A DNA stretch of 64,000 nucleotides from a virus (taxonomy: Duplodnaviria; Caudoviricetes). Location: IMG/VR virus record IMGVR_UViG_3300021256_000072, positions 1 to 64,000 of that record; one strand, written 5' to 3'. A program made the position numbers and the translations under genes. Positions 1 to 24,031 of the stretch are shown in pieces (within the stretch, counting starts at the first letter, position 1; every line of letters starts with the position of its first letter). The notes below the pieces were generated by a model. The model was not told the origin of the DNA, did no database searches, and saw only the letters and a list, made by a program, of their open reading frames with translations.

Positions 1-15
1 TTTAATAATTTTATT

Positions 16-783
16 ATGACAGAAAAAGAAGCAGAGGATTTATGTAAAATGGTAAGAATAGGAGTAGATTTAAGTAAGCCTAAATATAATAAATATAATT
101 ATCATCCAAAAACAGATACTGAGTTAAGGTATATAGTTGTGAAGCTAATTGAAGAAAGGGGAAATGAGGCAGATTTGAATGATGTTGATGTTTTCCGAAT
201 TACGAATATGAGCCATTTGTTTGCTTGGTCTGAATTTAATGGGGATATTTCAGAATGGAATGTTAGTAAGGTGAAAAATATGGAGGGAATATTTAATGGA
301 TCTAAATTCAATGGTGATATATCTAAATGGGATGTTAGGAGAGTTGAGGACATGAGTTGGATGTTTACTAATTCTCAATTCAACGGTGATATTTCTAGCT
401 GGGATGTTAGGAAGGTGAAGAGGATGAGTGGAATGTTTTGGTGTTCTAAATTTAATGGGGATATTTCAAAATGGGACGTTAGTAAAGTTGAGTGGATGGA
501 TATGATGTTTGCCTATTCTCAATTCAATGGGAATATCTCGAATTGGGATGTTAGTAAGGTGGAGAGTATGAATATGATGTTCGCTTATTCTCAATTTAAT
601 GAAGATATTTCTAGTTGGGATGTTAGGAGAGTGAAGAATATGAGGCATATGTTTGAAGGTTCTCAATTTAGTGGGAATATTTCAAATTGGAATGTTGATA
701 ATGTGAAGTATATGGAAGATATGTTTAAAGGCTCTACTAATAATAGTAATATTCCTAAATGGTGGAGTGCTGCTAGTAAGTGA
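16..783 (+). CDS. DUF285/BspA-type repeat protein (8 repeat units)
   Basis: 24-aa repeats FNGDISxWDVSxVxxMxxMFxxS, N-cap YHPKT..EL..LIEERGNEADLNDVDV and MTEKEAEDLC leader; divergent C-terminus. Confidence 0.9.
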   Translation: MTEKEAEDLCKMVRIGVDLSKPKYNKYNYHPKTDTELRYIVVKLIEERGNEADLNDVDVFRITNMSHLFAWSEFNGDISEWNVSKVKNMEGIFNGSKFNGDISKWDVRRVEDMSWMFTNSQFNGDISSWDVRKVKRMSGMFWCSKFNGDISKWDVSKVEWMDMMFAYSQFNGNISNWDVSKVESMNMMFAYSQFNEDISSWDVRRVKNMRHMFEGSQFSGNISNWNVDNVKYMEDMFKGSTNNSNIPKWWSAASK

Positions 784-850
784 GAGAAGTGGCATAAAAT
801 ATTACTTCACTTAAAATTCTTGTAATTTTCTGTCTATTAGCGTTTGACTC

Positions 851-860
851 CTTATATTTG
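851..860 (+). promoter_or_regulatory. Putative promoter CTTATATTTG
   Basis: Matches the recurring CTTAWWWWTG motif and the Bacteroidota -7 box TAnnTTTG; 30 nt before ATG 891. Confidence 0.55.
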
Positions 861-890
861 TAGAAATTGTAATAAAAATTCTTATAAAAG

Positions 891-1505
891 ATGGCAGAGT
901 CTCTTAAACAGTACGTAGATTATTTGTTAGAAAACAAAATTGATGAAGTTACAGGATCTAAGTTGATAAATGACTGTAAAGATCTTAGTTCCTTTGATAA
1001 AAAATTAATTTATGCTTACGTATATCCCAGACTATTGAGAGATGGTGAGCTTCCTTCTAGAGTACAAAACTTTAGAAAAGAGAATAATCTTCCTTTAGTT
1101 GGACAATTGCAGGCATCTGAAGAATCTATTTTGTTAGTCGAGGCCGAAAGAACTGGGCAATATTGTAAATTCATTCATCACCTAGTCTACTCATTCTCTA
1201 ATCCAAAGAATATATTTCCAGTAGAGGGAAGCGAGAAATCATCTTGCCCTATTTGTGGAAAAATCCTATATGAGAAAGATTTGTGGGATGAATTAATTAA
1301 GCAGAATCCAAACTCTCCTGAAGTAAATAGAAGAGAGTATTTAGCATTTGGAAGCCCTAATTCTAGTGTTTCTCTTTGTGCAGACTGTTTAGCACAATTA
1401 ATTTATGCCGATGAATTATTAGAAAGCATCAATCCGGATTATTTGTATTATAGAAAACGAAGTAATAACAATAATCAGGTTGTGTGGAACGAATTAAAAC
1501 TTTAA
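891..1505 (+). CDS. Hypothetical protein with CxxC...CxxC putative zinc finger
   Basis: CPICG and CADC motifs. Confidence 0.7.
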   Translation: MAESLKQYVDYLLENKIDEVTGSKLINDCKDLSSFDKKLIYAYVYPRLLRDGELPSRVQNFRKENNLPLVGQLQASEESILLVEAERTGQYCKFIHHLVYSFSNPKNIFPVEGSEKSSCPICGKILYEKDLWDELIKQNPNSPEVNRREYLAFGSPNSSVSLCADCLAQLIYADELLESINPDYLYYRKRSNNNNQVVWNELKL

Positions 1506-1518
1506 TATTAATATTAAT

Positions 1519-2037
1519 ATGATCTATCAAACCGAGACAGGCGGAACCGTAACCGCTATTGAAACTAATACATTAAATGAAAGTAATCTTGGAACTGATG
1601 TTTTAACTCAGTGTCCTATTCATCATCAGGAGATTAAAGTTGAAGATAAGAAAATTTATGATGATGTTGAACACGAACCTACAGCCTTTACTTTAGATGT
1701 AGAGGAGCTTACTATTGTAGTTGGTGATTCACATAAATTTATTATAACTCAGCAGGATCTTACTAAGAATCTTCCAGTACTTGTTTGGGAGTGTACTAAG
1801 GATACTGACGCTGAGACTGGTAAAAGTTTCGATGTTTGCTTTGTAAATAATAATATTTTAAGAGCTATGAATATCGGAACTTCTACTGTAACCGCTTATG
1901 ATGTTACTGATCCAGAAAATCTTAAAACTGCTACCGTTACTGTTACTGTAGTAGATCGACTCCCAGAAGCAGAAGTAGAGGAAGGGAATGATTTAGAGGG
2001 CGGTGACAACGGTAACGACAACGGTAGTAACAGCTAA
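1519..2037 (+). CDS. Ig-like (Big_2-type) domain protein with acidic tail
   Basis: FTLDVEELTIVVGDS...VW...LRAMNIGTSTVTA...ATVTVTV pattern. Confidence 0.6.
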   Translation: MIYQTETGGTVTAIETNTLNESNLGTDVLTQCPIHHQEIKVEDKKIYDDVEHEPTAFTLDVEELTIVVGDSHKFIITQQDLTKNLPVLVWECTKDTDAETGKSFDVCFVNNNILRAMNIGTSTVTAYDVTDPENLKTATVTVTVVDRLPEAEVEEGNDLEGGDNGNDNGSNS

Positions 2038-2047
2038 TAAATAAAGA

Positions 2048-2094
2048 ATTAAAGAGTTATATATAAGACAATTATTATAGCTCTTTAATTTTTT
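2048..2094 (+). terminator. AT-rich hairpin with T tract
   Basis: aattaaagagttata...tatagctctttaatt followed by T run after the 2037 stop. Confidence 0.5.
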
Positions 2095-2188
2095 AAGTGT
2101 AATAAGTGAAAATAATTCCGTGCTCTCATTCAGGCTGGATTACTTATAAATGTATAGTATAAATTGTAAAACTTAATTTTATCATTTA

Positions 2189-2800: not shown

Positions 2801-2887
2801 TAAAATATTAAAATAAAATATAAAATAGACAAAAATAGTGAGAAATCCTCTTTTGTCTATTTTATTTTTAATAATTTAACTTAAAAT

Positions 2888-3463
2888 ATGCAACAACTTA
2901 GCGATAGAGTAGTAGTAATTTATCCAGGCGATGAAGTTCCTCAATTAACTGGAGATGCTATTAAATTATATCTTGGAGGAACTATGGATTTCGCTAGTTC
3001 AGCAAATGATTGGCAGTCAAAATTTTGTCAAGCACTTGTTGAATTAACCAATCCATTTAAAGGACTATTAATGTACAAGAATACTAATTGGTTGATTTTT
3101 AATCCCCATGTACTTCCTAGAACTTCAAATCCACCAGATCTACAAAACCCAGAATTTGTTCAAACTATGCAATGGAGAATGAATGGTCAAGATATGGCAG
3201 ATATTATCTTTTTGAATATCTTGAATAAATCTGTATCTCAGTCTCCTATTTTAGAGTTTGGAAGTAATCTACAATCTAAGAAATTAATTGTAAGATGCGG
3301 AGATGTTCATCCAATGTATAGTCAAATCAGGTTATATTGTGAAAAATATAACGTTCCATTACTTACTGGGAAAACTAGTGTAAAGGATGTTCTTTTAAGT
3401 GCTGGAGGATTCTTACAAAAATTTCAGGAGACTCAAATTACTAATCAGAGTTTGCCTTTATAA
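2888..3463 (+). CDS. Nucleoside 2-deoxyribosyltransferase-like protein
   Basis: LYLGGT...DWQ...IFNP...ADIIFL...SPILEFG...KLIVRC pattern typical of the Nuc_deoxyri_tr2-like fold. Confidence 0.6.
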   Translation: MQQLSDRVVVIYPGDEVPQLTGDAIKLYLGGTMDFASSANDWQSKFCQALVELTNPFKGLLMYKNTNWLIFNPHVLPRTSNPPDLQNPEFVQTMQWRMNGQDMADIIFLNILNKSVSQSPILEFGSNLQSKKLIVRCGDVHPMYSQIRLYCEKYNVPLLTGKTSVKDVLLSAGGFLQKFQETQITNQSLPL

Positions 3464-3483
3464 GAGATATTAAATAGAAAATT

Positions 3484-4047: not shown

Positions 4048-4057
4048 GATATTGAGG

Positions 4058-4099: not shown

Positions 4100-4151
4100 A
4101 CTTGACAATAATGCCTTATATATGAAAATAATTAAGAAAAATTTATATATT

Positions 4152-5069
4152 ATGACAAAGTACAATTATCAACCAAAAACAAAAGAAGAATTAAAAAATC
4201 TTATTAAGAAGTTAATTAAAGAAAGGGGAAACGAAGCAGATTTGAATGATATAGACGTTTCTCTGATCACGGATATGAGTTGGTTATTTTATGACGTGCA
4301 GGGATTTAAAGGAGATATTTCTGACTTGGGTTCGTTATTATTTAGAGATATGGAATCGCCCAACTTAGGTGAATTCAATGGAAATATCTCTAAGTGGAAC
4401 GTATCTAATGTTAAGGATATGCGGGGTATGTTCAGTCATACTAAGTTCAAGGGGGATATATCTAAATGGGACGTATCTAAAGTTGAGAATATGAAATTTA
4501 TGTTCAGTCACTCTAGATTCAATGGTGACATTTCAAACTGGAATGTATCTAGAGTTGAGGATATGGAAGAGATGTTCAGTAACTCTAGGTTCAGTGGGGA
4601 TATCTCCAAATGGAACGTATCTAGAGTTAAGAGTATGGAGAATATGTTCTGTAATACTAAGTTCAACGGTGATTTATCCAAGTGGGATGTATCCAATGTT
4701 GAGAATATGAGAGGAATGTTTAGGGAATCCATGTTCAATGGAGATATCTCTAAGTGGAATGTATCTAAGGTTAAGATTATGGACAGTATGTTCTGTTATT
4801 CTAAATTTAATAGAGATATCTCAAAGTGGGATGTATCTAACGTTAAAGATATGAAATACATGTTCTTCCTATCTAAGTTTAACAGTGATATATCTAAATG
4901 GAATGTATCTAATGTTGAGGATATGAGTAGAATGTTTAAAGAATCTGAGTTTGAAGGATATATATCAAACTGGGATACACGCAACGTTAAGGATAAGACT
5001 GAAATGTTCTTCAAATCTCCATTAGAGCCTAAGAAGCCTAAGAAACCTATGATAGTCGTAATAATGTGA
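4152..5069 (+). CDS. Divergent DUF285/BspA-type repeat protein (about 9 units)
   Basis: Same repeats; start moved to ATG 4152 (MTKYNYQPK) because ATG 4122 lies inside the promoter motif CTTATATATG (4115-4124). Confidence 0.85.
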   Translation: MTKYNYQPKTKEELKNLIKKLIKERGNEADLNDIDVSLITDMSWLFYDVQGFKGDISDLGSLLFRDMESPNLGEFNGNISKWNVSNVKDMRGMFSHTKFKGDISKWDVSKVENMKFMFSHSRFNGDISNWNVSRVEDMEEMFSNSRFSGDISKWNVSRVKSMENMFCNTKFNGDLSKWDVSNVENMRGMFRESMFNGDISKWNVSKVKIMDSMFCYSKFNRDISKWDVSNVKDMKYMFFLSKFNSDISKWNVSNVEDMSRMFKESEFEGYISNWDTRNVKDKTEMFFKSPLEPKKPKKPMIVVIM

Positions 5070-6062: not shown

Positions 6063-6180
6063 AATATTTAATTTTTTTTATTCTTTCATATATAATGAAT
6101 TTAGTTAAAATTTAGTGAAATTTTTAGTAATATTAAACTCCTCTCAAAATCTTATTTATGAAACCTTTAATAATTTTATT

Positions 6181-6642
6181 ATGACAATTGAGGAAGCAGA
6201 GGAGTTGTGTAGGATGGTTAATACCTATCATCCAGAAACAAGAGAAGAATTAAGAGATCTTATTAAGGAACTAATTAAAGAAAGGGGAAATGAGGCAGAT
6301 TTGAATGATATAGACGTTTCTCGAATTACGGATATGGATTGGATGTTTTCTGATTCTAAATTTAATGGAGATATTTCAGAATGGAATGTTAGTAGGGTTG
6401 AGAGTATGGAAGGAATGTTTTATAATTCTCAATTTAATGGTGATATTTCAAATTGGGATATTAGTAGTGTGAAAAGATTGGATAATATGTTTAATGATTC
6501 TGAATTTAATGGTGATATCTCTAAATGGGATGTTAGTAATGTTGAGAGTATGAGTTTTATGTTTTATAGGTCTCAATTCAATGGAGATATCTCTAAATGG
6601 GCTAAGAAACCAAAGAAACCATTAGACTATTATGACAATTAA
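6181..6642 (+). CDS. DUF285/BspA-type repeat protein (4 units, shortened leader)
   Basis: ATG 6181 follows the conserved aaacctttaataattttatt leader; GTG 6115 lies upstream of the promoter motif. Confidence 0.85.
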   Translation: MTIEEAEELCRMVNTYHPETREELRDLIKELIKERGNEADLNDIDVSRITDMDWMFSDSKFNGDISEWNVSRVESMEGMFYNSQFNGDISNWDISSVKRLDNMFNDSEFNGDISKWDVSNVESMSFMFYRSQFNGDISKWAKKPKKPLDYYDN

Positions 6643-7187
6643 GAAAGCTGAAGATTTATGTAGGTAGGATGATAAGAATAGGAGTAGATTTAAGTAGGAC
6701 TAAGTACAATTATCATCCAAAAACAAAAGAGGAGTTAATAGATCTCATTAAGGAACTGATTGGAATAAGGGGAAATGAAGCGGATTTGAATGATATAGAC
6801 GTTTCTCAAATTACGAGCATGAGTTGGTTATTTGTTCATTCTGAATTTAATGGAGATATTTCAAAATGGGATGTTGGGAAGGTTGAGAATATGGAAGGAA
6901 TGTTTCGGTGTTCTCAATTTAATGGTGATATTTCAAAATGGAATGTTAGTAAGGTGAAGTATATGGTGGACATGTTTGCTTATTCCAAATTTAACAAAGA
7001 TATTTCAAAGTGGGATGTTAGTGGAGTGAAGGATATGGAAGTGATGTTTAGAAATTCTCAATTTAACGGTGATATTTCAAAATGGGATGTTAGTAATGTT
7101 GAGGATATGGGTTGGATGTTTCTGGGATCTCAATTCAATGGGGATATCTCAAAATGGGCTAAGAAACCAACAGGCTATTACTATTAA
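6632..7187 (+). CDS. DUF285/BspA-type repeat protein (5 units) with frameshifted leader; intact ORF from 6669
   Basis: ATG 6632 gives MTIKKAEDLCR then TAG because of a TAGG duplication at 6661-6668; the rest is open from ATG 6669. Confidence 0.8.
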
Positions 7188-7207: not shown

Positions 7208-7759
7208 ATGACAGAAAAAGAAGCTGAAGATCTATGTAGGATGGTAAGAATAGGAGTAGATTTGAGTAGGCCTAAGTATAATTATCATCCAAAAACAAAA
7301 GAGGAGTTAATGGTTATTGTTAATGAACTAATTAAAGAAAGGGGAAATGAGGCGGATTTGAATGATGTTGATGTTTCCCAAATTACGGATATGAAGTGGA
7401 TATTTGCTCATTCTGAATTTAATGGAAATATTTCAAAATGGGATGTTAGTAAGGTGAAAAATATGAAAGGGATGTTTTGGGGATCTAAATTTAATGGGAA
7501 TATCTCAAAATGGGATGTTAGTGGAGTTGAGGATATGCAAAGTATGTTCGCTCATTCCGAATTTAATGGCGATATTTCTAATTGGGATGTTAGTGGAGTT
7601 GAGGATATGAGTTGGATGTTTGCTTCTTCTGGATTTAACGGGGATATTCCAAATTGGAATGTTAGTGGAGTTGAGGATATGAAAGAGGTGTTTACTTTTT
7701 CTCGATTCAACGGAGATATTTCAAAATGGGCTAAGAAACCAACGGGCTATTACTATTAA
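7208..7759 (+). CDS. DUF285/BspA-type repeat protein (5 units)
   Basis: Leader, N-cap, repeats, KWAKKP end. Confidence 0.9.
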   Translation: MTEKEAEDLCRMVRIGVDLSRPKYNYHPKTKEELMVIVNELIKERGNEADLNDVDVSQITDMKWIFAHSEFNGNISKWDVSKVKNMKGMFWGSKFNGNISKWDVSGVEDMQSMFAHSEFNGDISNWDVSGVEDMSWMFASSGFNGDIPNWNVSGVEDMKEVFTFSRFNGDISKWAKKPTGYYY

Positions 7760-8368: not shown

Positions 8369-9016
8369 ATGGAAAAAGAAATAAGAAGAGTGCCTTTTGA
8401 TATTGAAAAGGCAAAAGCAGGTGCTAAAGTCGTTACTGGATATGGTTATCCTGTAAGAGTATGTCTTTTTGATTTAAAAAACAAATATACTCCAATTGTC
8501 GCTGCTGTAGAAATACACGGAGTAGAAACTCCATTTACATTTACAAAAGAAGGAAGACTTTTAGTTGACACAGGAGTTGATGATAATCTTGGCCTTTTTA
8601 TCGAGGAAGAGGTTGTCCATCCTAAGTTCAAAGTAGACGACGTGATGAGATTATTGGTTGAAGCAGAAGATGACATTACAGAAGGCTTGCCAGTAGTTGT
8701 GTCTATTGATGATAAATATTATCACTGCAATAATGAAACAATTGCAATTAAAGATCAGGATGATTATGAGTTTCCACCAATGAATGCGAAGCAGAAATCT
8801 TCTAATGAAGTAAAACCTAATAGTAGGCTCATGACCCTCCAGGAGCTTTCTGATTGGCTTAGGGACAGTCCCGAAGAACACCGGGAATATAAGTATGTGG
8901 ATAGTAGTACAGTTCGAAATAGTTATGCTTACCGTGAAGAAGACACAAGTAAGCTGGCCGATGATATATTGGTCAGACGAAATCACGGGGAATGGGAGGA
9001 GCCGTTAATTAAATAA
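8369..9016 (+). CDS. Modular phage hypothetical protein (paralog of 10577..11830)
   Basis: Shared N-terminal VPFDIEKAKAGAKVVT and C-terminal QELSxWLRDxPEEHREY...GEWEEPLI modules. Confidence 0.75.
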   Translation: MEKEIRRVPFDIEKAKAGAKVVTGYGYPVRVCLFDLKNKYTPIVAAVEIHGVETPFTFTKEGRLLVDTGVDDNLGLFIEEEVVHPKFKVDDVMRLLVEAEDDITEGLPVVVSIDDKYYHCNNETIAIKDQDDYEFPPMNAKQKSSNEVKPNSRLMTLQELSDWLRDSPEEHREYKYVDSSTVRNSYAYREEDTSKLADDILVRRNHGEWEEPLIK

Positions 9017-13624: not shown

Positions 13625-13857
13625 GCAATGTTTTAAATATTGGGGATTATGTAGCTTTTACGTGGTTGCATACAGATAATGATGGATGTGTGCGACCAAT
13701 GATAGATATTGCTCCAATTAAAGAAATTTGCGATGTACTATTGTTAGTATCATTAGACGTTACCGATCTAAATATTGACGAAATCGGTTATACTAATTGG
13801 TTTAGTGATAACGAAATTATTTTAGTCAGAAGAAAAGAAAAGGAGGTCGAGGTATGA
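13609..13857 (+). CDS. Small hypothetical protein
   Basis: DKLGNVLNIGDYVAF start typical of small SH3-like phage proteins. Confidence 0.6.
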   Translation: MWDKLGNVLNIGDYVAFTWLHTDNDGCVRPMIDIAPIKEICDVLLLVSLDVTDLNIDEIGYTNWFSDNEIILVRRKEKEVEV

Positions 13858-14684
13858 TTTTTATAAAGAACGCATTAGTTGTAATATTTGTAATACTTGG
13901 AGTAGTTTTCTTACTTCTTTGTCTTTATACGTTTTTAGAAGAGTATATGGCTCCACCTAAAAGGAGTTATAAGTTTAAGATTGAATACGATGAGAAAGCA
14001 AAAAGGTTTATACTATTACAAAAGCGCAGATTAATTGGATGGTATACGTATAAAGATACATTCAAAACAAAAGAAGACACTGAATATTACATGTACCAAA
14101 TCGTAAGGCGATACGCTGAGGAAGACGAGATGAAAAGACAAGAGCAGTTTTACGACATTAATCCGATTAAAGATAGCTCACGACTTATTGAAAACAAATC
14201 AAATTATAATTATCATCCAAAAACAACAAGAGAATTAAAAGATCTAATCGAAAAGCTAATTGAAGAAAGGGGAATTGGGGCGGATTTGAATGATGTTGAC
14301 GTTTCCCAAATTAAAGATATGAGAAAATTATTTTATGGGTCTAAGTTTAGTGGAGATATCTCTAATTGGGATGTTAGTAGGGTTGAGAATATGGGAGGAA
14401 TGTTTGAAGGTTCTAAATTTAATGGGGATATCTCTAAATGGGATGTTAGTGAAGTGAAGAATATGAGGAGTATGTTTTATAATTCTCAATTCAATGGAGA
14501 TATCTCAAAATGGAATGTTAGGAAAGTGGAGGATATGTATGGGATGTTCCAATATTCTCAATTTAATGGAGATATCTCTAATTGGAATGTTAGTAATGTG
14601 AAGAATATGGAAATGATATTTCAGCATTCTAAATTCAATGGGGATATTTCTAAATGGGCTAATAAACCGTTTTATTTACCTTAA
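13854..14684 (+). CDS. Membrane-anchored fusion: TM domain plus DUF285 repeats (5 units)
   Basis: First ~115 aa are paralogous to 14771..15139; NYNYHPKT N-cap and repeats follow. Confidence 0.85.
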   Translation: MIFIKNALVVIFVILGVVFLLLCLYTFLEEYMAPPKRSYKFKIEYDEKAKRFILLQKRRLIGWYTYKDTFKTKEDTEYYMYQIVRRYAEEDEMKRQEQFYDINPIKDSSRLIENKSNYNYHPKTTRELKDLIEKLIEERGIGADLNDVDVSQIKDMRKLFYGSKFSGDISNWDVSRVENMGGMFEGSKFNGDISKWDVSEVKNMRSMFYNSQFNGDISKWNVRKVEDMYGMFQYSQFNGDISNWNVSNVKNMEMIFQHSKFNGDISKWANKPFYLP

Positions 14685-14770: not shown

Positions 14771-15139
14771 ATGATTTTTGTTATTGCATTTTTCCACGCA
14801 TTATTTATAGTACTTGGAGTAGTTTTCTTATTTCTTTTGATTTGGTGGTTTTTAGGAGATTGGGTTACAGCTCCACCTAAAAGGAGTTATAAGTTTAAGA
14901 TTGAATACGATGAAGAATTGGGGAAGTATGTACTATTGCAAAAACGTATGCTTGGATGGTGGTATACGTATAAAGATAAATTTGAGACGAAAGAGAGAGC
15001 CGAACGTTACATGCACCAAATCCTAATACGATATGCTGAGGATGACGAGAAGAAAGGAAAGGAGCAGTTTTACGAATTTACTCCGATCAAAGATAGATCA
15101 CGGCTTCTTGAAAACAAACCGAACGACAAAGCTGATTAA
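14771..15139 (+). CDS. Membrane-anchored hypothetical protein
   Basis: N-terminal TM helix; APPKRSYKFKIEYDE shared with 13854. Confidence 0.75.
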   Translation: MIFVIAFFHALFIVLGVVFLFLLIWWFLGDWVTAPPKRSYKFKIEYDEELGKYVLLQKRMLGWWYTYKDKFETKERAERYMHQILIRYAEDDEKKGKEQFYEFTPIKDRSRLLENKPNDKAD

Positions 15140-15200
15140 GGAGATGTTCTGTTTAAAATGAAGGTACATAAAGATTGTATAATTTTTGTTAAAAGAGAAA

Positions 15201-15430: not shown

Positions 15431-15829
15431 ATGACAGAAAAAGAAGCAGAGGATTTATGTAGAATGGTAAGGATAGGGGTAGATTTGAGTCCTAAGTATA
15501 ATTATCATCCAAAAACAAAAGAGGAATTAAAAGATCTAATTGAGGAACTGATTGAAAAAAGAGGAAATGAAGCAGATTTGAATGATGTTGATGTTTCCCA
15601 AATTAAAGATATGAGTTATTTATTCTGGTATTCTCAATTTAACGGGAATATTTCAAGATGGAATGTTAGTAGAGTGAAGAGCATGGAAGGAATGTTTGCC
15701 AATTCTCAATTTAATGGGGATATTTCTAATTGGGATGTTAGGAATGTTGAGAATATGTTTGATATGTTTTTTAATTCCAAATTTGAAAGAGGTATCTCTA
15801 AATGGGCCAAGAAACCAACTTTATTTTAA
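15431..15829 (+). CDS. DUF285/BspA-type repeat protein (3 units)
   Basis: Leader, N-cap, repeats, KWAKKPTLF end. Confidence 0.9.
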   Translation: MTEKEAEDLCRMVRIGVDLSPKYNYHPKTKEELKDLIEELIEKRGNEADLNDVDVSQIKDMSYLFWYSQFNGNISRWNVSRVKSMEGMFANSQFNGDISNWDVRNVENMFDMFFNSKFERGISKWAKKPTLF

Positions 15830-15916
15830 AAGAAAAGACCTGGATTAATTTTAGTCTAGGTTTTTCTTTTCTCCTCAAACTCTTATTATTGAATATAAAC
15901 CTTAAATTAAACTTAT

Positions 15917-16465
15917 ATGACGTACAATTATCAACCAAAAACAAAAGAAGAATTAAAAGGCTTAATCGAAAAATTGATTAAAGAAAGAGGAAATGAAGCA
16001 GATTTGAATGATATAGATGTTTCTCAAATTACAGATATGGATGATTTATTTGCTAATTCCAAATTTAATGGAAATATCTCAGAATGGGATGTTAGTGGAG
16101 TTGAGAATATGGGTGGAATGTTTCGGGATTCTAAATTTAACGGAGATATATCTAATTGGGATGTTAGGAAAGTGTGGAATATGATTGGGATGTTTAGTTG
16201 TTCTCAATTTAATGGGGATATTTCAAATTGGGATGTTAGTAATGTGAGGAATATGAGTGGGATGTTTTCTTATTCTAAATTCAATGGGAATATCTCTAAT
16301 TGGAATGTAAATAAGGTGTTGGATACAGAATTGATGTTTCTTATGTCTCAATTTAATGGAGATATCTCTAATTGGGACGTTAGTGGGGTTGAGAAGATGA
16401 ATCATATGTTTACTAATTCTGAATTTAAAGGCGATATCTCTAAATGGGCTAAGAAACCAGAGTAA
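15917..16465 (+). CDS. DUF285/BspA-type repeat protein (6 units, no MTEKEAEDLC leader)
   Basis: Starts directly at MTYNYQPKT. Confidence 0.9.
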   Translation: MTYNYQPKTKEELKGLIEKLIKERGNEADLNDIDVSQITDMDDLFANSKFNGNISEWDVSGVENMGGMFRDSKFNGDISNWDVRKVWNMIGMFSCSQFNGDISNWDVSNVRNMSGMFSYSKFNGNISNWNVNKVLDTELMFLMSQFNGDISNWDVSGVEKMNHMFTNSEFKGDISKWAKKPE

Positions 16466-16542
16466 GAAAGAAAACCTGGATTAATTTCTGGGTTTTATTT
16501 TCTCCTCAAACTCTTATTTATGAAACCTTTAATAATTTTATT

Positions 16543-17160
16543 ATGACAATTGAGGAAGCTGAAGAGTTGTGTAAAATGGTAAAAATAGGGATGGATTTAG
16601 ATAAACCTAAGTATAATTATCATCCAAAAACAAGAGATGAATTAAAAGACCTAATCGAAGAACTAATTAAAGAAAGGGGAAATGAAGCGAATTTGAATGA
16701 TGTTGATGTTTCCCAAATTACAGATATGAGAGAATTGTTTTATGAATCTAAATTTAATGGGGACATTTCAAATTGGGACGTTAGAAAGGTGAAGATAATG
16801 AGTTATATGTTTTACGATTCCCTATTTAGTGGTGATATTTCGAAATGGAATGTTAGTAATGTTGAGGATATGGGTTTTATGTTTTACCGTTCTAAATTCA
16901 ACGGGGATATCTCAAAATGGGACGTTAGTAAAGTTGAGAGTATGTACTATATGTTTTCTCGTTCTCAATTTAATGGCGATATCTCTAATTGGGATGTTAG
17001 TGGAGTTGTAGATATGAGAGGAATGTTTGAATGTTCTCTATTTAATGGTGATATCTCAGAATGGGATGTTAGTGGGGTTAAGGAGATGAATTGGATGTTT
17101 TGGTGCTCTGAATTTAGTGGGGATATCTCAAAATGGGCTAAGAAACCGGCTCCATTTTAA
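16543..17160 (+). CDS. DUF285/BspA-type repeat protein (6 units)
   Basis: Leader, N-cap, repeats. Confidence 0.9.
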   Translation: MTIEEAEELCKMVKIGMDLDKPKYNYHPKTRDELKDLIEELIKERGNEANLNDVDVSQITDMRELFYESKFNGDISNWDVRKVKIMSYMFYDSLFSGDISKWNVSNVEDMGFMFYRSKFNGDISKWDVSKVESMYYMFSRSQFNGDISNWDVSGVVDMRGMFECSLFNGDISEWDVSGVKEMNWMFWCSEFSGDISKWAKKPAPF

Positions 17161-17242
17161 AAGAATAAACCTGGATTAATTTTAGTCTAGGTTTTTATTT
17201 TCTCCTCAAACTCTTATTTATGAAACCTTTAATAATTTTATT

Positions 17243-18355
17243 ATGACGGAAAAAGAAGCTGAAGACTTGTGTAGAATGATAAGAATAGGAGTAGATTTAA
17301 GTAAGCCTAAATATAATTATTATTCAAAAACAAAAGAGGAATTAAAAGATCTCGTTAAGGAATTAATTAAAGAGAGGGGAAATGAGGCAGATTTGAATGA
17401 TATAAACGTTTCCCAGGTTAAAGATATGAGTGGATTATTCTGGGATTCTCAATTCAATGGAAATATTTCAAAGTGGGACGTTAGTAAAGTTGAGAATATG
17501 GATTGTATGTTTGAAAATTCTAACTTTAATGGAGATATTTCAAAATGGGACGTTAGTGGAGTTGTGAATATGGAAGATATGTTTTACAATTCTGAATTTA
17601 ATGGCGATATCTCTAAATGGAATGTTAGTAGAGTGAAAAGGATGAGTGGGATGTTCCGAGAGTCTCAATTCGATGGTGATATCTCGAAATGGGACGTTAG
17701 CAGAGTTGAGTGTATGGGTGTGATGTTTTGTGAATCTCAGTTTAATGGAGATATCTCTAATTGGGTTGTTAGTAAGGTGAAGAACATGGGGTGTATGTTT
17801 TATTATTCTAAATTCAGTGGGAATATTTCTAATTGGGATGTTAGGGGAGTTGTGAATATGAATAACATGTTTGAAGGTTCTAAATTTAATGGGGATATTT
17901 CGAATTGGGATGTTAGTAGGGTGGAGAGTATGTTCGGAATGTTTCAAAGTTCTAAATTCAATGGGGATATCTCTAAATGGAATGTTAGTAAGGTTGAGAA
18001 TATGAGTTATATGTTTTGTGAGTCTGAATTCAACGGAGATATTTCAAAATGGGATGTTAGTAAGGTGAAGGATATGAGTGAAATGTTCAAATACTCTAAA
18101 TTTAATGGAGATATCTCGAAGTGGAATGTTAGTAAGGTTGTAACTATGGGAGAAATGTTTTATGGCTCTCAATTTAATGGCGATATCTCAAAATGGGACG
18201 TTAGTAATGTGAAAGATATGAAGTGGATGTTTGCTCTTTCCCAATTTAATGGTGATGTTTCTAAATGGGATGTTAGTAAGGTGAAGAATATGATCCGTAT
18301 GTTTTATGGCTCTCAATTTAATGGAGATATCTCTAAATGGGCTAGGAAACCATAA
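17243..18355 (+). CDS. DUF285/BspA-type repeat protein (13 units)
   Basis: Leader, N-cap, repeats. Confidence 0.9.
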   Translation: MTEKEAEDLCRMIRIGVDLSKPKYNYYSKTKEELKDLVKELIKERGNEADLNDINVSQVKDMSGLFWDSQFNGNISKWDVSKVENMDCMFENSNFNGDISKWDVSGVVNMEDMFYNSEFNGDISKWNVSRVKRMSGMFRESQFDGDISKWDVSRVECMGVMFCESQFNGDISNWVVSKVKNMGCMFYYSKFSGNISNWDVRGVVNMNNMFEGSKFNGDISNWDVSRVESMFGMFQSSKFNGDISKWNVSKVENMSYMFCESEFNGDISKWDVSKVKDMSEMFKYSKFNGDISKWNVSKVVTMGEMFYGSQFNGDISKWDVSNVKDMKWMFALSQFNGDVSKWDVSKVKNMIRMFYGSQFNGDISKWARKP

Positions 18356-18435
18356 TAAAAAGAAAGCCTGGATTAATTTCCGGGTTTTTATTTTCTCCTC
18401 AAAATCTTATTTATGAAACCTTTAATAATTTTATT

Positions 18436-19275
18436 ATGACAGAAAAAGAAGCAGAGGATTTATGTAAAATGGTAAGAATAGGAGTAGATTTAAGTAAGCC
18501 TAAATATAATAAATATAATTATCATCCAAAAACAAGAGAGGAATTAAAAGATCTAATCAACAAACTAATTGAAGAAAGGGGAAATGAGGCGGATTTGAAT
18601 GATGTTGATGTTTCCAAAATTACGAATATGAGAGAAATGTTTGCTAGATCTTATTTTAATGGAGACATTTCAGAATGGAATGTTAGTAAGGTTAAGGAGA
18701 TGGGATGGATGTTTCATGAATCTCAATTCAATGGTGATATTTCTAAGTGGAACGTTAGGAAAGTTAAAAACATGAGAGGAATGTTTTCTAGATCTCAATT
18801 TAACAGTGATATTTCAAAATGGGATGTTAGTAATGTTGAGGATATGGCAGGAGTGTTTTATAATTCCCAATTTAATGGTGATATTTCTAATTGGGATGTT
18901 AGTAGTGTTGGGGAGATGGGAGAGATGTTTCGAGGTTCTGAATTTAATGGGAATATCTCAAATTGGAATGTTAGTAAGGTGTGGAATATGGAAGGAATGT
19001 TTGCTTTTTCTGAATTTAATGGAAATATTTCGAATTGGGATGTTAGTAATGTTGAGAATATGTATGGAATGTTTTGGTATTCTAAATTCAATGGTAATAT
19101 TTCTAGCTGGGATGTTAGTAGGGTGAAGGATATGGGTGGGATGTTTGGTTATTCTAAATTCAATAGTGATATTTCTAATTGGGATGTTAGTGGAGTGAAG
19201 GATATGAGAGGAATGTTTTATTGTTCTAAATTCAACGGAGATATTTCTAAATGGGCCAAGAAACCGACAGAATAA
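18436..19275 (+). CDS. DUF285/BspA-type repeat protein (9 units)
   Basis: Leader, N-cap, repeats. Confidence 0.9.
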   Translation: MTEKEAEDLCKMVRIGVDLSKPKYNKYNYHPKTREELKDLINKLIEERGNEADLNDVDVSKITNMREMFARSYFNGDISEWNVSKVKEMGWMFHESQFNGDISKWNVRKVKNMRGMFSRSQFNSDISKWDVSNVEDMAGVFYNSQFNGDISNWDVSSVGEMGEMFRGSEFNGNISNWNVSKVWNMEGMFAFSEFNGNISNWDVSNVENMYGMFWYSKFNGNISSWDVSRVKDMGGMFGYSKFNSDISNWDVSGVKDMRGMFYCSKFNGDISKWAKKPTE

Positions 19276-19360
19276 AAAAAAGAATAAGCCTAGATTAATT
19301 TTAGTCTAGGTTTTTATTTCCCCTCAAAATCTTATTTATGAAACCTTTAATAATTTTATT

Positions 19361-20281
19361 ATGACAGAAAAAGAAGCTGAAGATTTGTGTAAAATGATAA
19401 GAGTAGGAGTGGATTTAAGTAAGCCCAAGTACAATTATCATCCAAAAACAAGAGTGGAATTAAAAGATCTAATTGAGGAACTGATTGAAAAAAGAGGAAA
19501 TAAAGCAGATTTAAATGATGTTGATGTTTCTCAAATTACAGATATGAATCATTTATTTCTTAAATCTAAATTCAATGGAGATATCTCAAAATGGGATGTT
19601 AGTAATGTGAGGGATATGAGTTGGATGTTTTGGTGTTCTAAATTCAATGGGAATATTTCTAGTTGGAATGTTAGTAAGGTTGAGAAGATGGAACGTATGT
19701 TTTGTGGTTCCCAATTCAATGAAAATATTTCAAATTGGAATGTTAGTGAAGTGAAGGATATGAGTGAGATGTTTCTTGAATCTCAATTTAACGAAGATAT
19801 CTCAAATTGGGATGTTAGGAAGGTTGAGAATATGAGTTGGATGTTTTGTGGTTCTCAATTCAATGAAAATATCTCAAATTGGAACGTTAGTGGAGTAAAG
19901 AATATGGACGGAATGTTTTGTAGATCTAAGTTTAATGGAGATATTTCAAAATGGGACGTTAGTGGAGTGAAGGAGATGGAAAGGATGTTTCTGAGATCTC
20001 AATTCAACGGAGATATCTCAAATTGGAATGTTAGTAATGTTGAGAACATGGAAGAGATGTTTGCTTATTCTCAATTTAACGGTGATATTTCTAGTTGGGA
20101 TGTTAGTGGAGTTGAGAATATGAAATTTATGTTTTTCGAGTCTCAATTCAATAGTGATATCTCTAAATGGGACGTTAGGAAGGTGAAGAGTATGGAAAGG
20201 ATGTTTAAGAAGTCTCAATTCAATGGAGATATTTCTAAATGGCCTAAGAAACCAAAAGGATATAAAAAATACTCGGATTAA
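19361..20281 (+). CDS. DUF285/BspA-type repeat protein (10 units)
   Basis: Leader, N-cap, repeats; C-terminus reads into the hairpin. Confidence 0.9.
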   Translation: MTEKEAEDLCKMIRVGVDLSKPKYNYHPKTRVELKDLIEELIEKRGNKADLNDVDVSQITDMNHLFLKSKFNGDISKWDVSNVRDMSWMFWCSKFNGNISSWNVSKVEKMERMFCGSQFNENISNWNVSEVKDMSEMFLESQFNEDISNWDVRKVENMSWMFCGSQFNENISNWNVSGVKNMDGMFCRSKFNGDISKWDVSGVKEMERMFLRSQFNGDISNWNVSNVENMEEMFAYSQFNGDISSWDVSGVENMKFMFFESQFNSDISKWDVRKVKSMERMFKKSQFNGDISKWPKKPKGYKKYSD

Positions 20282-20342
20282 TTTCCGGGTTTTTATTTTC
20301 TCCTCAAAATCTTATTTATGAAACTTTTAATAGTTTATTATT

Positions 20343-21317: not shown

Positions 21318-21398
21318 AAAAGAAAGACCTAGATAAATTTATCTAGGTTTTTATTTTCTCCTCAAAATCTTATTTATGAAACCTTTAATAATTTTATT

Positions 21399-22295: not shown

Positions 22296-22391
22296 TAAAA
22301 AAAACAATAAAAGACCTAGATTAGTTTAATTTTAATCTAGGTTTTATTTTCTCCTCAAAATCTTATTCATGAAACTTTTAATAATTTTATT

Positions 22392-23078
22392 ATGACAGAA
22401 AAAGATGCTGAAGAGTTGTGTAAAATGGTAAGAATAGGTGTAGATTTAGGTAAACCTAAATATAATCATCATCCAAAAACAAAAGAAAAGTTAAAAGATC
22501 TCATTGAGGAACTAATTAAAGAGAGGGGAAATGAGGCAGATTTGAATGATGTTGACGTTTCCCAAATTACGGATATGAGTTATTTATTTTATAAATCTAA
22601 CTTTAATGGGAATATTTCTAATTGGAATGTGAGTAAGGTGAAGAATATGAGTTGGATGTTTCGGGAATCCCGATTTAATGGAGATATTTCAAAATGGGAT
22701 GTGAGTAAGGTCAAGAGTATGGGCTGGATGTTTCTAGGATCTCAATTTAATGGTGATATTTCTAAGTGGAATGTTAGTAGTGTAAAGGATATGAGGTGGA
22801 TGTTTCGGGAATCCCAATTTAACGGCGATATCTCAAAATGGGACGTTAGTGGAGTGAAATGGATGTACTATATGTTTTCTAGATCTCAATTTAACAGTGA
22901 TATCTCAAAATGGGATGTTAGTGGAGTGAAGAATATGATAAAGATGTTTGCTAATTCTCAATTCAATGGAGATATTTCAAATTGGGATGTTAGTGGGGTT
23001 GAGGAGATGGGTATGTGGTGTATGTTTGAAGATTCTCAATTCAATGGGAATATTTCTAAATGGGTTAAGAAACCGTAA
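22392..23078 (+). CDS. DUF285/BspA-type repeat protein (7 units)
   Basis: Leader, N-cap, repeats. Confidence 0.9.
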   Translation: MTEKDAEELCKMVRIGVDLGKPKYNHHPKTKEKLKDLIEELIKERGNEADLNDVDVSQITDMSYLFYKSNFNGNISNWNVSKVKNMSWMFRESRFNGDISKWDVSKVKSMGWMFLGSQFNGDISKWNVSSVKDMRWMFRESQFNGDISKWDVSGVKWMYYMFSRSQFNSDISKWDVSGVKNMIKMFANSQFNGDISNWDVSGVEEMGMWCMFEDSQFNGNISKWVKKP

Positions 23079-23174
23079 TAAAAAAAAATAATAAAAGACC
23101 TAGATTAGTTAATTTTAGTCCGGGTTTTCTTTTCTCCTCAAAATCTTATTTATGAAACCTTTAATAATTTTATT

Positions 23175-23945
23175 ATGACAGAAAAAGAGGTAGAGGATTT
23201 ATGTAGAATGGTAAGATTGGGAGTAGATTTAAGTAGACCTAAGTACAATTATCATCCAAAAACAAAGGAGGAGTTAAAAAATCTAGTCGAAAAGTTAATT
23301 GAAGAAAGAGGAAGAAAAGCAAACTTAAATGATATAGACGTTTCTCAAATTGAAGACATGAGTTTGATGTTTGGTTGGTCTAACTTTAATGGAGATATTT
23401 CTAAATGGAACGTTAGTAGAGTAAAGAGAATGGACAGGATGTTTACTTATTCTCAATTTAATGGAGATATTTCAAATTGGGATGTTAGTGGAGTGAAGAG
23501 TATGGAAGGAATGTTTGAAGGTTCTAGATTTAATGGAGATATCTCTAATTGGAATGTTAGTGGAGTTGAGGACATGAGTTATGCGTTCTATGGCTCTTCT
23601 CGATTTAATAAGGATATTTCAAAGTGGAATGTTAGTAGAGTTATGGATATGAGAGGAATGTTCGCTTATTCTCAATTTAATGAAGATATTTCTAGTTGGG
23701 ATGTTAGTGGAGTGAAGGATATGAGGCATATGTTTGAAGGTTCTCAATTCAATGGAGATATTTCAAATTGGGATGTTAGTAGGGTTGAGTGGATGGAATG
23801 GATGTTTCGATGTTCTAAATTTAACAGTGATATTTCTAGATGGAATGTTAGTAGTGTGAAGAATATGAACTGGATGTTTCTGGGATCTCAATTCAATGGG
23901 GATATCTCAAAATGGGCTAAGAAACCAACAGACTATTACTATTAA
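23175..23945 (+). CDS. DUF285/BspA-type repeat protein (8 units)
   Basis: Leader, N-cap, repeats. Confidence 0.9.
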   Translation: MTEKEVEDLCRMVRLGVDLSRPKYNYHPKTKEELKNLVEKLIEERGRKANLNDIDVSQIEDMSLMFGWSNFNGDISKWNVSRVKRMDRMFTYSQFNGDISNWDVSGVKSMEGMFEGSRFNGDISNWNVSGVEDMSYAFYGSSRFNKDISKWNVSRVMDMRGMFAYSQFNEDISSWDVSGVKDMRHMFEGSQFNGDISNWDVSRVEWMEWMFRCSKFNSDISRWNVSSVKNMNWMFLGSQFNGDISKWAKKPTDYYY

Positions 23946-23948
23946 AAA

Positions 23949-23983
23949 GTGATATTTCAAAATGGGCTAAGAAACCAGAATAA
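23949..23983 (+). pseudogene. Orphan 3' end of a DUF285 gene (DISKWAKKPE*)
   Basis: gatatttcaaaatgggctaagaaaccagaataa matches the end of 20343..21317. Confidence 0.8.
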
Positions 23984-24031
23984 AAAAAATAAACCTAGAT
24001 TAATTTATCTAATCCGGGTTTATTTTTTTTT
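23984..24031. terminator. Bidirectional hairpin closing the array
   Basis: A-run, aataaacc...ggtttatt, T-run. Confidence 0.65.

Follow-up and report, generated by a model that had tools for sequence, protein, structure and literature searches.

A large family of signal-less DUF285/PARCEL proteins in a phage, possibly an intracellular binding repertoire

The window, which is the 64,000-nucleotide stretch of phage DNA analyzed here, contains an array of 17 DUF285 (PF03382) paralogs, all on the + strand, and the whole phage, a megaphage of ~312.5 kb, possesses 62 such ORFs. With a probability of about 0.45, these genes encode an inherited binding-protein repertoire of signal-less DUF285/PARCEL proteins, which expanded in this lineage and probably acts inside the cell.

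All of the 17 paralogs reported by a sequence-only reading were found in their places, and its claim that the array is phage-encoded was supported. Three representatives (genes 2, 7, and 11) matched Pfam DUF285 with E values of 2e-45 to 1e-163. A six-frame scan of the 106-kb record for PF03382 returned 38 matches within window positions 1–24000 and 0 elsewhere. The TIGR02167 PARCEL repeat was also matched (103.6 bits versus a cut-off of 30). The array is cut by the window edge: base 1 falls inside a cassette, and 7 further paralogs lie immediately upstream. The genes and gene remnants are as follows.

16..783, +, DUF285 paralog 1; 255 aa, 7 repeat starts, leader present, atypical C-end KWWSAASK
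4122..5069, +, DUF285 paralog 2; 315 aa, 9 repeat starts, no leader, atypical C-end
6181..6642, +, DUF285 paralog 3; 153 aa from ATG 6181
6669..7187, +, DUF285 paralog 4; 172 aa, leader shortened by a stop just upstream of the ATG
7208..7759, +, DUF285 paralog 5; 183 aa
7779..8243, +, DUF285 paralog 6; 154 aa
13854..14684, +, DUF285 paralog 7; 276 aa, with an N-terminal transmembrane segment, a domain of ~100 aa, and 5 repeat starts
14771..15139, +, paralog of the front half of gene 7 (transmembrane segment plus 100 aa), without the DUF285 part
15431..15829, +, DUF285 paralog 8; 132 aa, 3 repeat starts, the smallest
15917..16465, +, DUF285 paralog 9; 182 aa, no leader
16543..17160, +, DUF285 paralog 10; 205 aa
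17243..18355, +, DUF285 paralog 11; 370 aa, 13 repeat starts, the largest of the window
18436..19275, +, DUF285 paralog 12; 279 aa, chosen for folding
19361..20281, +, DUF285 paralog 13; 306 aa
20343..21317, +, DUF285 paralog 14; 324 aa
21399..22295, +, DUF285 paralog 15; 298 aa
22392..23078, +, DUF285 paralog 16; 228 aa
23175..23945, +, DUF285 paralog 17; 256 aa
23948..23983, +, orphan 3' end left by a lost paralog (SDISKWAKKPE, then a stop); it follows the gene 17 stop immediately and is out of frame

The orphan 3' end is a footprint of unequal recombination or deletion. The translations of gene 7 and of 14771..15139 share the motifs APPKRSYKFKIEYDE, LLQKR, YTYKD, and RYAE. A GTG at 6115 was rejected as the start of gene 3 in favor of the ATG at 6181, the longer ORF running through the promoter cassette. 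Gene 11 is overlapped by a 135-aa ORF in antisense orientation.

Counted with the pattern F...[ILV][SP].W, the 17 genes contained 122 repeat starts (3–13 each), close to the ~120 units of 24 aa claimed earlier. The 24-aa period was strict except for three units (25, 25, and 26 aa), and no two of the 102 full units in these genes were identical. The proposed combination of a near-fixed framework with variable positions was borne out by the entropy per unit position: F1, W8, V13, and F20 were invariant; N2, I5, S6, V10, M16, M19, and S23 were near-invariant; positions 7, 12, 14, 15, and 24 were intermediate (1.7–2.5 bits); and positions 17, 18, 21, and 22 were hypervariable (3.2–3.8 bits). The C-cap, described as mostly of KWAKKP type, was found as [KN]W.[KRN]KP in 15 of the 17 window genes. 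The supposedly constant N-cap consisted of two parts. Its family-wide part, Y.PKT..EL..LI...RG..A.LNDIDVS.ITDM, was present in all 17 window genes as well as in database homologs, whereas the lineage-specific 22-aa leader MTEKEAEDLCRMVRIGVDLSKP was present in only 13. The proteins have a four-part layout, with an optional helical leader of 22 aa, the family N-cap, the 24-aa rungs, and a basic KWAKKP C-cap.

The AlphaFold2 model of paralog 12 was an LRR-like solenoid (pLDDT 93.8, pTM 0.85), in agreement with the fold suggested earlier. It aligned with LRR proteins at Z scores of 13–15.5 (VIA-align), including the FNIP protein of CroV (7zal; Z 15.0, rmsd 3.8, identity 19%). The proteins are thus predicted to be LRR-like solenoids of the known DUF285/PARCEL family, and the leader is an extra element not required for folding. 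Rung positions 12–22 varied both among rungs and among genes. As the variability falls at fixed positions, a regular solenoid must bring it together in a single stripe; the idea that the variable residues share one face stands to this extent. This stripe would lie on the concave face, as judged from the repeat period and from aligning the motif with that of the published FNIP structure.

The pN/pS of framework codons was 0.06–0.08 and that of hypervariable codons was 1.1–1.2, which also held in unit pairs at least 90% identical. The scaffold is under strong purifying selection. At the variable codons no clear excess of non-synonymous change was found, and relaxed constraint alone would give a pN/pS near 1. 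Given the residue bias and a scaffold pN/pS of ~0.07, however, the variable positions are not drifting freely. Compared with the other proteins of the phage, the hypervariable positions were enriched in W (6-fold), C (4.3-fold), H (2.7-fold), and G (2.4-fold) and depleted in L, I, V, T, and K; positions 17, 18, 21, and 22 were rich in Gly, Ser, Tyr, Trp, Cys, and Arg. This makeup resembles that of a binding site. The variability profile correlated with that of 559 database DUF285 units (r = 0.95), and the variable-position pattern of the DUF285/PARCEL family was published in 2010 (PMC2996958). The pattern is a trait of the whole family with nothing special to this phage, and so does not bear out the special diversification proposed earlier.

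In the phage arrays most genes were preceded, in order, by a terminator hairpin, a 25-nt promoter-like box, and an AT-rich leader in which no Shine-Dalgarno sequence was present. The 25-mer occurred in 47 copies genome-wide, with a mean pairwise identity of 91% versus 72% for the coding units, and 8 terminators were found on the + strand versus 2.6 expected. The cassettes of the window are listed below.

15830..15916, +, terminator hairpin and T-run, then a diverged promoter-like element
16466..16542, +, terminator, then CTCCTCAAACTCTTATTTATGAAAC, then CCTTTAATAATTTTATT-ATG
17161..17242, +, design as in 16466..16542
18356..18435, +, design as in 16466..16542; the 25-mer is the exact consensus
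19276..19360, +, design as in 16466..16542
20282..20342, +, design as in 16466..16542; its hairpin extends back into the end of gene 13
21318..21398, +, design as in 16466..16542
22296..22391, +, design as in 16466..16542
23079..23174, +, design as in 16466..16542

The window was 100% identical to a 312,110-bp ENA contig, which was walked and joined to two IMG/VR fragments to give a circular map of ~312.5 kb. The 62 DUF285 ORFs on this map contained 539 repeat starts and occupied 55.1 kb (17.6% of the genome); the family is far larger than the 17 genes first noted and makes up about one sixth of the genome. The proteins ranged from 130 to 640 aa (~17,000 aa in total), with 3–21 rungs of 24 aa each and the basic KWAKKP C-cap, and the helical leader was found in 55 of the 62 genes. 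Several altered C-ends were found in arrays outside the window. Only 6% of units had their nearest relative within their own gene, only 2% of neighboring unit pairs were collinear with another gene, and no recent near-identical duplicates were found among the units compared within this set. The repertoire is therefore old and maintained. A related 410-kb phage (97% complete) had 44 DUF285 paralogs with the rung pattern kept, whereas the leader (MKKLNQFITEKFRLSKDNL) and the C-cap differ. The 62 genes form 3 arrays amid small accessory genes, two of them far from the structural block. Array A meets, head-to-head, a block of giant proteins whose crAss-like homolog belongs to a virion or tail module.

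Inspection of the acidic N-termini revealed neither signal peptides nor lipoboxes. Such peptides are missing from phage virion proteins as well, and this absence is compatible with a virion role. Gene 7 (13854–14684) has an N-terminal transmembrane segment and is the single gene with a hydrophobic segment claimed earlier; another member of the family ends in a short hydrophobic tail. Unpaired surface Cys residues were frequent at exposed positions, which would fit a reducing compartment. In the reading that we favor, the proteins would be synthesized within the infected cell and remain cytoplasmic, with two members perhaps tethered to the inner membrane. The variable stripe of each protein would bind a different ligand, all of them would present one handle through their common leader, and the set together would be an inherited repertoire that serves in host takeover or counter-defence. 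The giant-virus DUF285 and FNIP families are intracellular, and some members are fused to an E3 ligase, kinase, or F-box (PMC9525666); by analogy, the phage proteins may have an intracellular role. If they are binders, candidate targets include host defence proteins or rival phages, as the sequence-only reading proposed.

The proteins could instead be virion-attached adhesins, whose leader plugs the solenoids into one site of the particle (tail, baseplate, or capsid) and whose interchangeable LRR heads form a cloud that binds host-surface glycans or gut mucus. Bacterial DUF285/PARCEL members are annotated as surface proteins and lipoproteins (PMC2996958), DUF285 of deposited jumbo phages is mostly found in giant, structural-looking ORFs (PMC7765460), the virions of Aureococcus anophagefferens virus (AaV) contain two of its DUF285 proteins (PMC7507832), and array A adjoins the giant-protein block related to crAss-like virion and tail proteins. 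Moreover, the 'fibre cloud' of the jumbo phage Goslar (bioRxiv 10.64898/2026.04.21.720040) comprises 10 proteins that combine a common N-module, DUF7941, with variable carbohydrate-binding, hydrolase, or LRR heads. The Goslar module, however, is folded and found in virions, whereas the shared part in the present phage is a 22-aa helix. Adhesins are a serious rival but less likely than the favored reading, given that the 62 proteins are different, small, and monomer-like, with no recognizable fibre, trimerization, or anchor domain beyond this helix, that 7 of them lack it, that exposed unpaired Cys is frequent, and that the arrays lie amid small accessory genes, two of the three being far from the structural block. 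The N-terminal anchor of one member and the hydrophobic tail of another are also unlike particle parts. Improbable, too, is that the leader is a capsid-targeting tag with which the solenoids are packaged, enter the cell with the DNA, and bind host proteins before phage expression. The leader is indeed dispensable for the fold, but by inspection MTEKEAEDLCRMVRIGVDLSKP contains neither a T4-type (L/I)-x-E site nor a [KR]-x-[FY]-S motif, the leader of the 410-kb phage differs, and 62 species totaling ~17,000 aa would burden the capsid heavily.

PARCELs have been proposed as 'mobilome' elements of Mollicutes with dyad symmetry and antisense ORFs (PMC2996958), and the family could be a selfish or neutral expansion of coding repeats spread by recombination and merely tolerated by the phage, with unconstrained variable positions. 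Consistent with this are the pN/pS of ~1 at variable codons, the antisense ORF over gene 11, and decay products such as the orphan 3' end, the shortened leader of gene 4, and the altered C-ends. Such an expansion is nevertheless improbable, as nearly all 62 ORFs are intact with a constrained framework, cassettes are kept at about 91–98% identity with synonymous sites near saturation, recent near-identical duplicates are absent, and the choice of residues at variable sites departs strongly from neutrality, given that the genome is AT-rich. Moreover, a second phage lineage independently keeps 44 copies, and it is costly to give 17.6% of a packaged genome to one family. The fixed scaffold, hypervariable positions, and conserved 5' cassette, a possible recombination site, give the appearance of programmed diversification by a diversity-generating retroelement or VLR-like cassette assembly. 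This mechanism is largely refuted and very improbable: no reverse transcriptase (PF00078) was found in two IMG/VR fragments of the phage or in the 97%-complete related phage, no machinery for VLR-like assembly was found in the phage fragments examined, and two assemblies of the same population were 100% identical over 34 kb. Variable residues, judged by composition, are not confined to adenine-templated codons. The likeness to lamprey and hagfish VLRs drawn earlier holds for the 24-aa LRR modules between caps, the variable fixed positions, and the structural match (Z ~13), but not for the mechanism: VLRs are assembled somatically from cassettes into an incomplete gene, whereas the phage genes are all complete and inherited and have their own promoters and terminators.

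The nearest precedent is the DUF285 family of AaV (Kratosvirus quantuckense). Similar to the phage, AaV has an expanded and clustered Pfam DUF285 family (38 genes, 13% of coding regions) with a conserved motif upstream of the genes, and its proteins match the phage model structurally in BFVD (E down to 1e-16). Different from the phage, AaV is a giant virus of a eukaryote that has ~90 copies in its own genome, and the AaV proteins are larger and some are fused (putative E3 ligase), whereas the 62 phage proteins are small and carry a lineage-specific leader and C-cap. The PARCEL proteins of Mollicutes and other bacteria (DUF285/TIGR02167; Roske et al., 2010, PMC2996958) share the repeat, the conserved amphipathic framework with variable hydrophilic positions, antisense ORFs, and large intragenomic families (42 ORFs and 226 domains in one mycoplasma). 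They are, however, mostly lipoproteins or membrane/surface proteins with export signals that the phage proteins lack, and the per-gene terminator-promoter cassette of the phage is not described for bacterial members. The FNIP/FGxxFN LRR proteins of CroV (Crov539 and Crov588; PDB 7zal; PMC9525666), the best non-generic structural match, also have a double aromatic spine and an F-N motif and belong to large viral paralog families for which host factor binding has been proposed, some with F-box fusions. They belong to another Pfam family, with a 22-aa FG..FN unit versus the 24-aa MF..S.FN unit of the phage, and their viruses infect eukaryotic hosts with a ubiquitin system.

Seventeen genes on the same strand, extending from position 16 to 23945 of the window, were found in the ORF listing to encode products of like construction (genes 1–17, numbered 5′ to 3′). 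Three representative members matched PF03382 (DUF285) with E values of 2e-45 to 1e-163 and scores of 154–536 bits, relative to a cut-off of 25, and a six-frame scan of the entire 106-kb record that contains the window placed all 38 PF03382 matches within window positions 1–24000. The listing and these matches bore out the array of 17 repeat paralogs proposed in the sequence-only reading. Two of three genes tested also scored 103.6 and 56 bits with TIGR02167 (PARCEL, NCBIfam; cut-off of 30), and the smallest gene scored 19.5 bits, under that cut-off. The Pfam scan of the three members returned only PF03382 and one sub-threshold unrelated match, with no match to the LRR_5 (BspA-type) profile and no FNIP match at E ≤ 0.01. 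The label "BspA family" in databases is an automatic name, and the four PHROG families that match the DUF285 proteins are each annotated "unknown function". The array runs past the window edge. The start of gene 3 was set at 6181, because the ORF from the GTG at 6115 runs through a regulatory cassette. Antisense ORFs of 135 and 106 amino acid residues lie over genes 11 and 12, respectively, and may or may not correspond to the dyad symmetry or antisense overlap known from PARCEL coding DNA.

With the regular expression F...[ILV][SP].W as the anchor for repeat starts, 122 starts were counted in the window genes, 3–13 in each, in agreement with the earlier estimate of about 120 units of 24 residues. 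All but three repeat spacings were exactly 24 residues, the others being 25, 25, and 26, and no two of the 102 full units were alike. Per-position entropy over these units showed that F1, W8, V13, and F20 were invariant and that N2, I5, S6, V10, M16, M19, and S23 were almost so. Entropy reached 3.2–3.8 bits at positions 17, 18, 21, and 22 and was intermediate at positions 7, 12, 14, 15, and 24, which confirms the nearly fixed framework with freely varying positions noticed previously. The tandem repeats of ~24–26 residues, amphipathic framework and variable hydrophilic positions that characterize DUF285/PARCEL proteins were thus all present.

The family extends well beyond the window. ENA contig ERZ12302812 NODE_13 (312,110 bp), found by exact-protein look-ups, was 100% identical to window positions 1–33945, and it carries seven more DUF285 genes immediately 5′ of window base 1. 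A 138.5-kb IMG/VR record (G001) contained 38 DUF285 ORFs. Its candidacy as a related phage was rejected, as its start overlaps the end of the 106-kb record (G000) except for an (AT)n length and the ENA contig covers both; it is the continuation of the same genome, and its end maps to ENA contig position 21,101. Any comparison between G000 and G001 is therefore a comparison within one genome. The assembly broke at the (AT)n microsatellite (about 106,310–106,463 of G000; 1–150 of stretch L008), which is 2 nt longer in one record than in the other. The two ends of the ENA contig fall ~390 nt apart within one G001 array, so the map is circular and of ~312.5 kb; as joined, it comprises 312,501 bases, 2.9 kb of them without sequence. 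The 62 DUF285 ORFs on this map share one strand and are grouped into three arrays (24, 19, and 19 genes); among them are 539 repeat starts and 467 full units. Stop to stop, these ORFs span 55.1 kb, or 17.6% of the genome. The leader, a 22-residue N-terminal helix, was recognized in 55 of the 62 members and a KW.KKP end in 50. Arrays C and A are separated by a 58-kb replication and nucleotide-metabolism module without any DUF285 ORF; among its products are NrdD, an SbcC-like protein, an FtsH-like protease, a ClpB-like AAA+ protein, ThyA, PolA, and a topoisomerase. Logan contigs of SRR873596 were, like the ENA contig, 100% identical to the window and represent the same population; no independent strain of the phage was found among the ENA and Logan matches.

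The DUF285 family, its variable-position design and its viral expansions are already known, and no published account of such arrays in huge phages was found in the literature. What is new is the size that the family reaches in a phage, with 62 genes on 17.6% of the genome, together with a small protein architecture of leader, cap, rungs and cap that has no signal, and a terminator-promoter cassette for each gene that is more conserved than the genes themselves.

In this cassette, the intergenic DNA that precedes DUF285 genes, a hairpin with G+C and a T-run stands 3′ of every gene from 9 to 17 (the 3′ run), and terminator-like sites on the + strand numbered 8 versus 2.6 expected. The hairpin is followed by a promoter-like 25-mer, CTCCTCAAAATCTTATTTATGAAAC, with nine copies in the window versus zero in shuffles, and then by CCTTTAATAATTTTATT-ATG, with ten copies. 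No Shine-Dalgarno sequence was found in the cassettes. Genes 3–6 are spaced 19–26 nt apart without a hairpin, and window base 1 itself falls within a cassette. Genome-wide, the 25-mer occurs in 47 copies with a mean pairwise identity of 91%, and TTTAATAATTTTATTATGAC also occurs in 47 copies, 31 of them exact. The mean identity of the DUF285 coding units is 72%, with synonymous sites near saturation; the non-coding cassette is thus the best-conserved part of the family. Two further features accompany the genes:

Window 16520–16545 and every cassette (e.g., 18413–18438): conserved 8-codon upstream ORF ATGAAACCTTTAATAATTTTATTATGA (MKPLIILL-stop), with a stop codon that shares bases with the main ATG (ATGA)
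Window 23948–23983: orphan 3′ gene end (SDISKWAKKPE-stop), out of frame, directly after gene 17

The orphan end is a recombination scar. Certain copies elsewhere on the map have a 1-nt indel that fuses the upstream ORF in frame (MKPFNSFIMTEK...), and this form is homologous to the leader of a 410-kb related phage (MKKLNQFITEK...). The box CTTAT(A/T)(A/T)AT(A/G)(G/A) also stands upstream of unrelated genes on both strands, including those of the structural region, and its use as an early/late marker was therefore rejected. By inspection, the box does not match the Bacteroidota −33/−7 consensus, and a scan for sigma-70 sites found them no more numerous than in shuffles.

That related phage (G002; 410 kb, 97% complete) possesses 44 paralogs in eight clusters on both strands. 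Similar to those of the 312-kb phage, their rungs follow the consensus FNGDISxWDVSNVxxMxxMFxxSx. However, their leader, MKKLNQFITEKFRLSKDNL, and their C-cap, NPPAWYKE, are both different, and they are packed as operons without hairpins, unlike the cassette genes of the 312-kb phage. The three ESM-Atlas clusters closest to gene 12 (18436–19275, 279 residues) have 390, 369, and 80 members, 89–100% of them viral. In a full HMMER search, the first 73 residues matched 1,877 representatives, of which only a handful began at residue 1; many small proteins matched from about residue 20 onward and therefore have their own short leader before a common cap. What the sequence-only reading took for one constant N-cap holds as a family-wide cap, and the 22 residues at its front are a separate, lineage-specific leader. 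DUF285 was also found in 108 deposited phage genome records, mostly of jumbo phages and usually within giant ORFs, all at < 60% identity. Among viruses of eukaryotes, AaV has 38 DUF285 genes, which share a conserved motif upstream and are expressed at a low but steady level (PMC10720644, PMC5917014).

No PDB chain matched by sequence. The AlphaFold2 model of gene 12, built from a 40-sequence alignment (pLDDT 93.8, pTM 0.85), has a leader helix at residues 3–14 (pLDDT about 75), a cap helix at 34–48 and, following it, a solenoid in which each rung has a single beta-bridge, at position 15. VIA-align gave Z scores of 12–15.5 with > 50 LRR entries over ~210–230 residues, including 15.0 for the CroV FNIP protein 7zal (rmsd 3.8, 19% identity), and 13.7 for a Bacteroides BspA-like protein. 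Foldseek found no PDB match at E ≤ 0.001, its LRR matches being weak (best E of 4.7e-3), and the BFVD matches were DUF285 proteins of AaV, other Megaviridae and jumbo phages. The predicted curved stack of rungs is superposable on solved LRR proteins, and model and superposition together support the LRR-like fold suggested before. The FNIP/FGxxFN unit has 22 residues with FG..FN, whereas the unit here has 24 with MF..S.FN and no FG dipeptide; the proteins lack the sequence features of the FNIP family, and the structural similarity is real. On a solenoid of regular 24-residue rungs, equivalent positions stack into ladders, so positions 12–22 must form one contiguous stripe; the face that carries it is placed by inference.

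The variable-position pattern is family-wide. The entropy profile correlated at r = 0.95 with that of 559 units from 120 database homologs and at 0.997 between two parts of the genome, and variable hydrophilic positions on a conserved framework have already been described for PARCEL (PMC2996958). Nei-Gojobori counts over all unit pairs were near saturation (dS about 1). At the four hypervariable codons, pN/pS was 1.16 among unit pairs ≥ 90% identical, 1.17 in the 85–90% band and 1.06 in the 80–85% band; the ≥ 90% pairs gave 1.30 at the five intermediate codons and 0.06 in the framework. Values of 1.06–1.17 across identity bands do not establish positive selection, and the non-synonymous excess sought for a diversified library was not clearly seen. 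Relative to the other proteins of the phage, the variable positions were enriched in Trp (6-fold), Cys (4.3-fold), His (2.7-fold), and Gly (2.4-fold), Tyr, Ser, and Arg were also raised, and Leu, Ile, Val, Thr, and Lys were strongly depleted (genome G+C of 33%). This composition is of the binding-site type, and the positions are not drifting freely.

Given a scaffold and cassette under selection, a stripe of binding type, the lack of export signals, exposed cysteines and a shared leader, we read the family as binding proteins, inherited as a repertoire, that act in the cytoplasm in host takeover or counter-defense, with a probability of about 45%. The reading also draws on analogy with the DUF285 and FNIP families of giant viruses, which work intracellularly and in some cases carry a fused E3 ligase, kinase or F-box (PMC9525666). 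The main rival is that the proteins are adhesins attached to the virion, in the manner of the Goslar "fibre cloud"; bacterial DUF285 members have a surface role, and the array adjoins a block of giant virion-like proteins. Different from bacterial DUF285/PARCEL members, for which export, lipoprotein or membrane association is typical, the proteins here have acidic-helix N-termini in which no hydrophobic core or lipobox was seen by inspection. An N-terminal transmembrane-like segment occurs in one of the 62 members and a short hydrophobic C-terminal tail in one other, and unpaired Cys residues are common at predicted exposed positions. The Goslar family carries a folded N-terminal DUF7941 module, whereas the shared N-terminal part here has just 22 residues; the Pfam scan found no second domain beside DUF285, although its profile set may lack a DUF7941 model. 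Loading into the capsid and injection with the DNA is less likely than either. By inspection, the leader, MTEKEAEDLCRMVRIGVDLSKP, contains no T4-type prohead-protease site, (L/I)-x-E, which may not be the specificity of this phage's own protease. DNA mimicry was rejected, as pI ranged from 4.4 to 9.1 without a uniform acidic surface.

Two further explanations are also less likely. One is selfish expansion of the genes. For 6% of units, the nearest unit belonged to the same gene, and for 3% to a neighboring one; only 7 of 399 neighboring unit pairs were collinear with another gene. No recent duplicates were found in these comparisons over all units of the map; therefore, the repertoire is old, shuffled or saturated, and maintained, and is not a fresh "accordion". 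The other is programmed diversification. A diversity-generating retroelement was rejected, since no reverse transcriptase (PF00078) was found in G000 and G001, which cover the genome apart from its 60-kb ENA-only part, or in the 97%-complete G002. The likeness to lamprey VLRs drawn in the sequence-only reading also failed: VLRs combine an incomplete inherited gene with promoter-less donors, whereas every DUF285 ORF is complete, from its start through the caps to its stop, and the genes of the window 3′ run each have a terminator and a promoter-like box.

The leader is dispensable for the fold, because seven members begin at the cap, and it resembles a shared handle, because it is kept in 55 members nonetheless. 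A bolder version, which we consider improbable, is that the 62 solenoids are inherited, antibody-like intracellular binders, each directed at a different host immune or housekeeping protein, and that the leader is a handle to one phage machine. The handle would bring bound targets to, e.g., the FtsH-like protease or the ClpB/ClpA-like AAA+ enzyme, both encoded by the phage at record positions ~36–50 kb. Such a system would do for a phage what substrate adaptors of the F-box-LRR and ankyrin-F-box types do for giant viruses and poxviruses. As binders of host proteins, the members would constitute the largest paralog family that we found described for a phage; in a 2021 survey, ~35 zinc ribbon copies in Bacillus phage G were called "unprecedented" (PMC7824862). 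In that case, they would likewise form a natural library of LRR scaffolds that are small, stable and cysteine-tolerant and whose surfaces are all different; work on their targets could reveal the host functions that a megaphage must neutralize and yield new scaffolds for binders. Since 2010, the very large DUF285/PARCEL family has had neither a known function nor a solved structure, and the small phage members, which are easy to express, may be the easiest entry to it. The parallel with the repeat families of AaV, CroV and mimivirus suggests a general rule that very large viruses, whether of bacteria or of eukaryotes, expand families of solenoid binders.

In addition, several other features of the genome were noted. 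An abiF RNA motif (Rfam RF03085) was matched at full length on the − strand (window 24038–24074; 52.2 bits relative to a gathering score of 37), in the gap where the DUF285 array and a gene for a 2718-residue protein converge. It has no adjoining abiF-like gene and agrees weakly with a counter-defense neighborhood. Giant ORFs of 2718, 1599, 1462, and 1727 residues follow on the − strand (window 24177–58676), with no significant Pfam or PHROG match. The 2718-residue protein shares ~30% identity with proteins of Lak megaphages of Prevotella and with a "spore coat protein-like / CotH kinase" protein from crAss-like phages, which hints at a Bacteroidota host. The FtsH-like protease (Peptidase_M41, 710 residues; 15987–18119), a separate AAA protein (413 residues; 18924–20165), and an IF-1-like protein (14944–15189) are encoded in stretch L029, and the ClpB/ClpA-like double-AAA protein (896 residues; 16962–19652) in stretch L030. 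The FtsH-like, AAA and ClpB/ClpA-like proteins are a protein-quality-control set unusual for a phage. Two paralogous proteins of ~657 residues (window 59118–61088 and G000 103539–105518) are both preceded by the box CTTAT..AT.G, and a third paralog, at 61.7–63.7 kb of G001, shares 61 and 49% identity with them. Within the array region, a second small paralog family (window 8369–9016 and 10577–11830) shares an N-terminal VPFDIEKAK.GAKVVT and a C-terminal LS.WLRD.PEEHREY ... RRN.GEWEEPLI; the longer gene, at 10577–11830, has an internal duplication, and precomputed Pfam results gave the family a weak Phage_HP1_YO09 match. Finally, a nucleoside 2-deoxyribosyltransferase-like protein (PF15891, E of 1e-11) is encoded among the array genes at window 2888–3463 and may have a role in nucleotide salvage or DNA modification.
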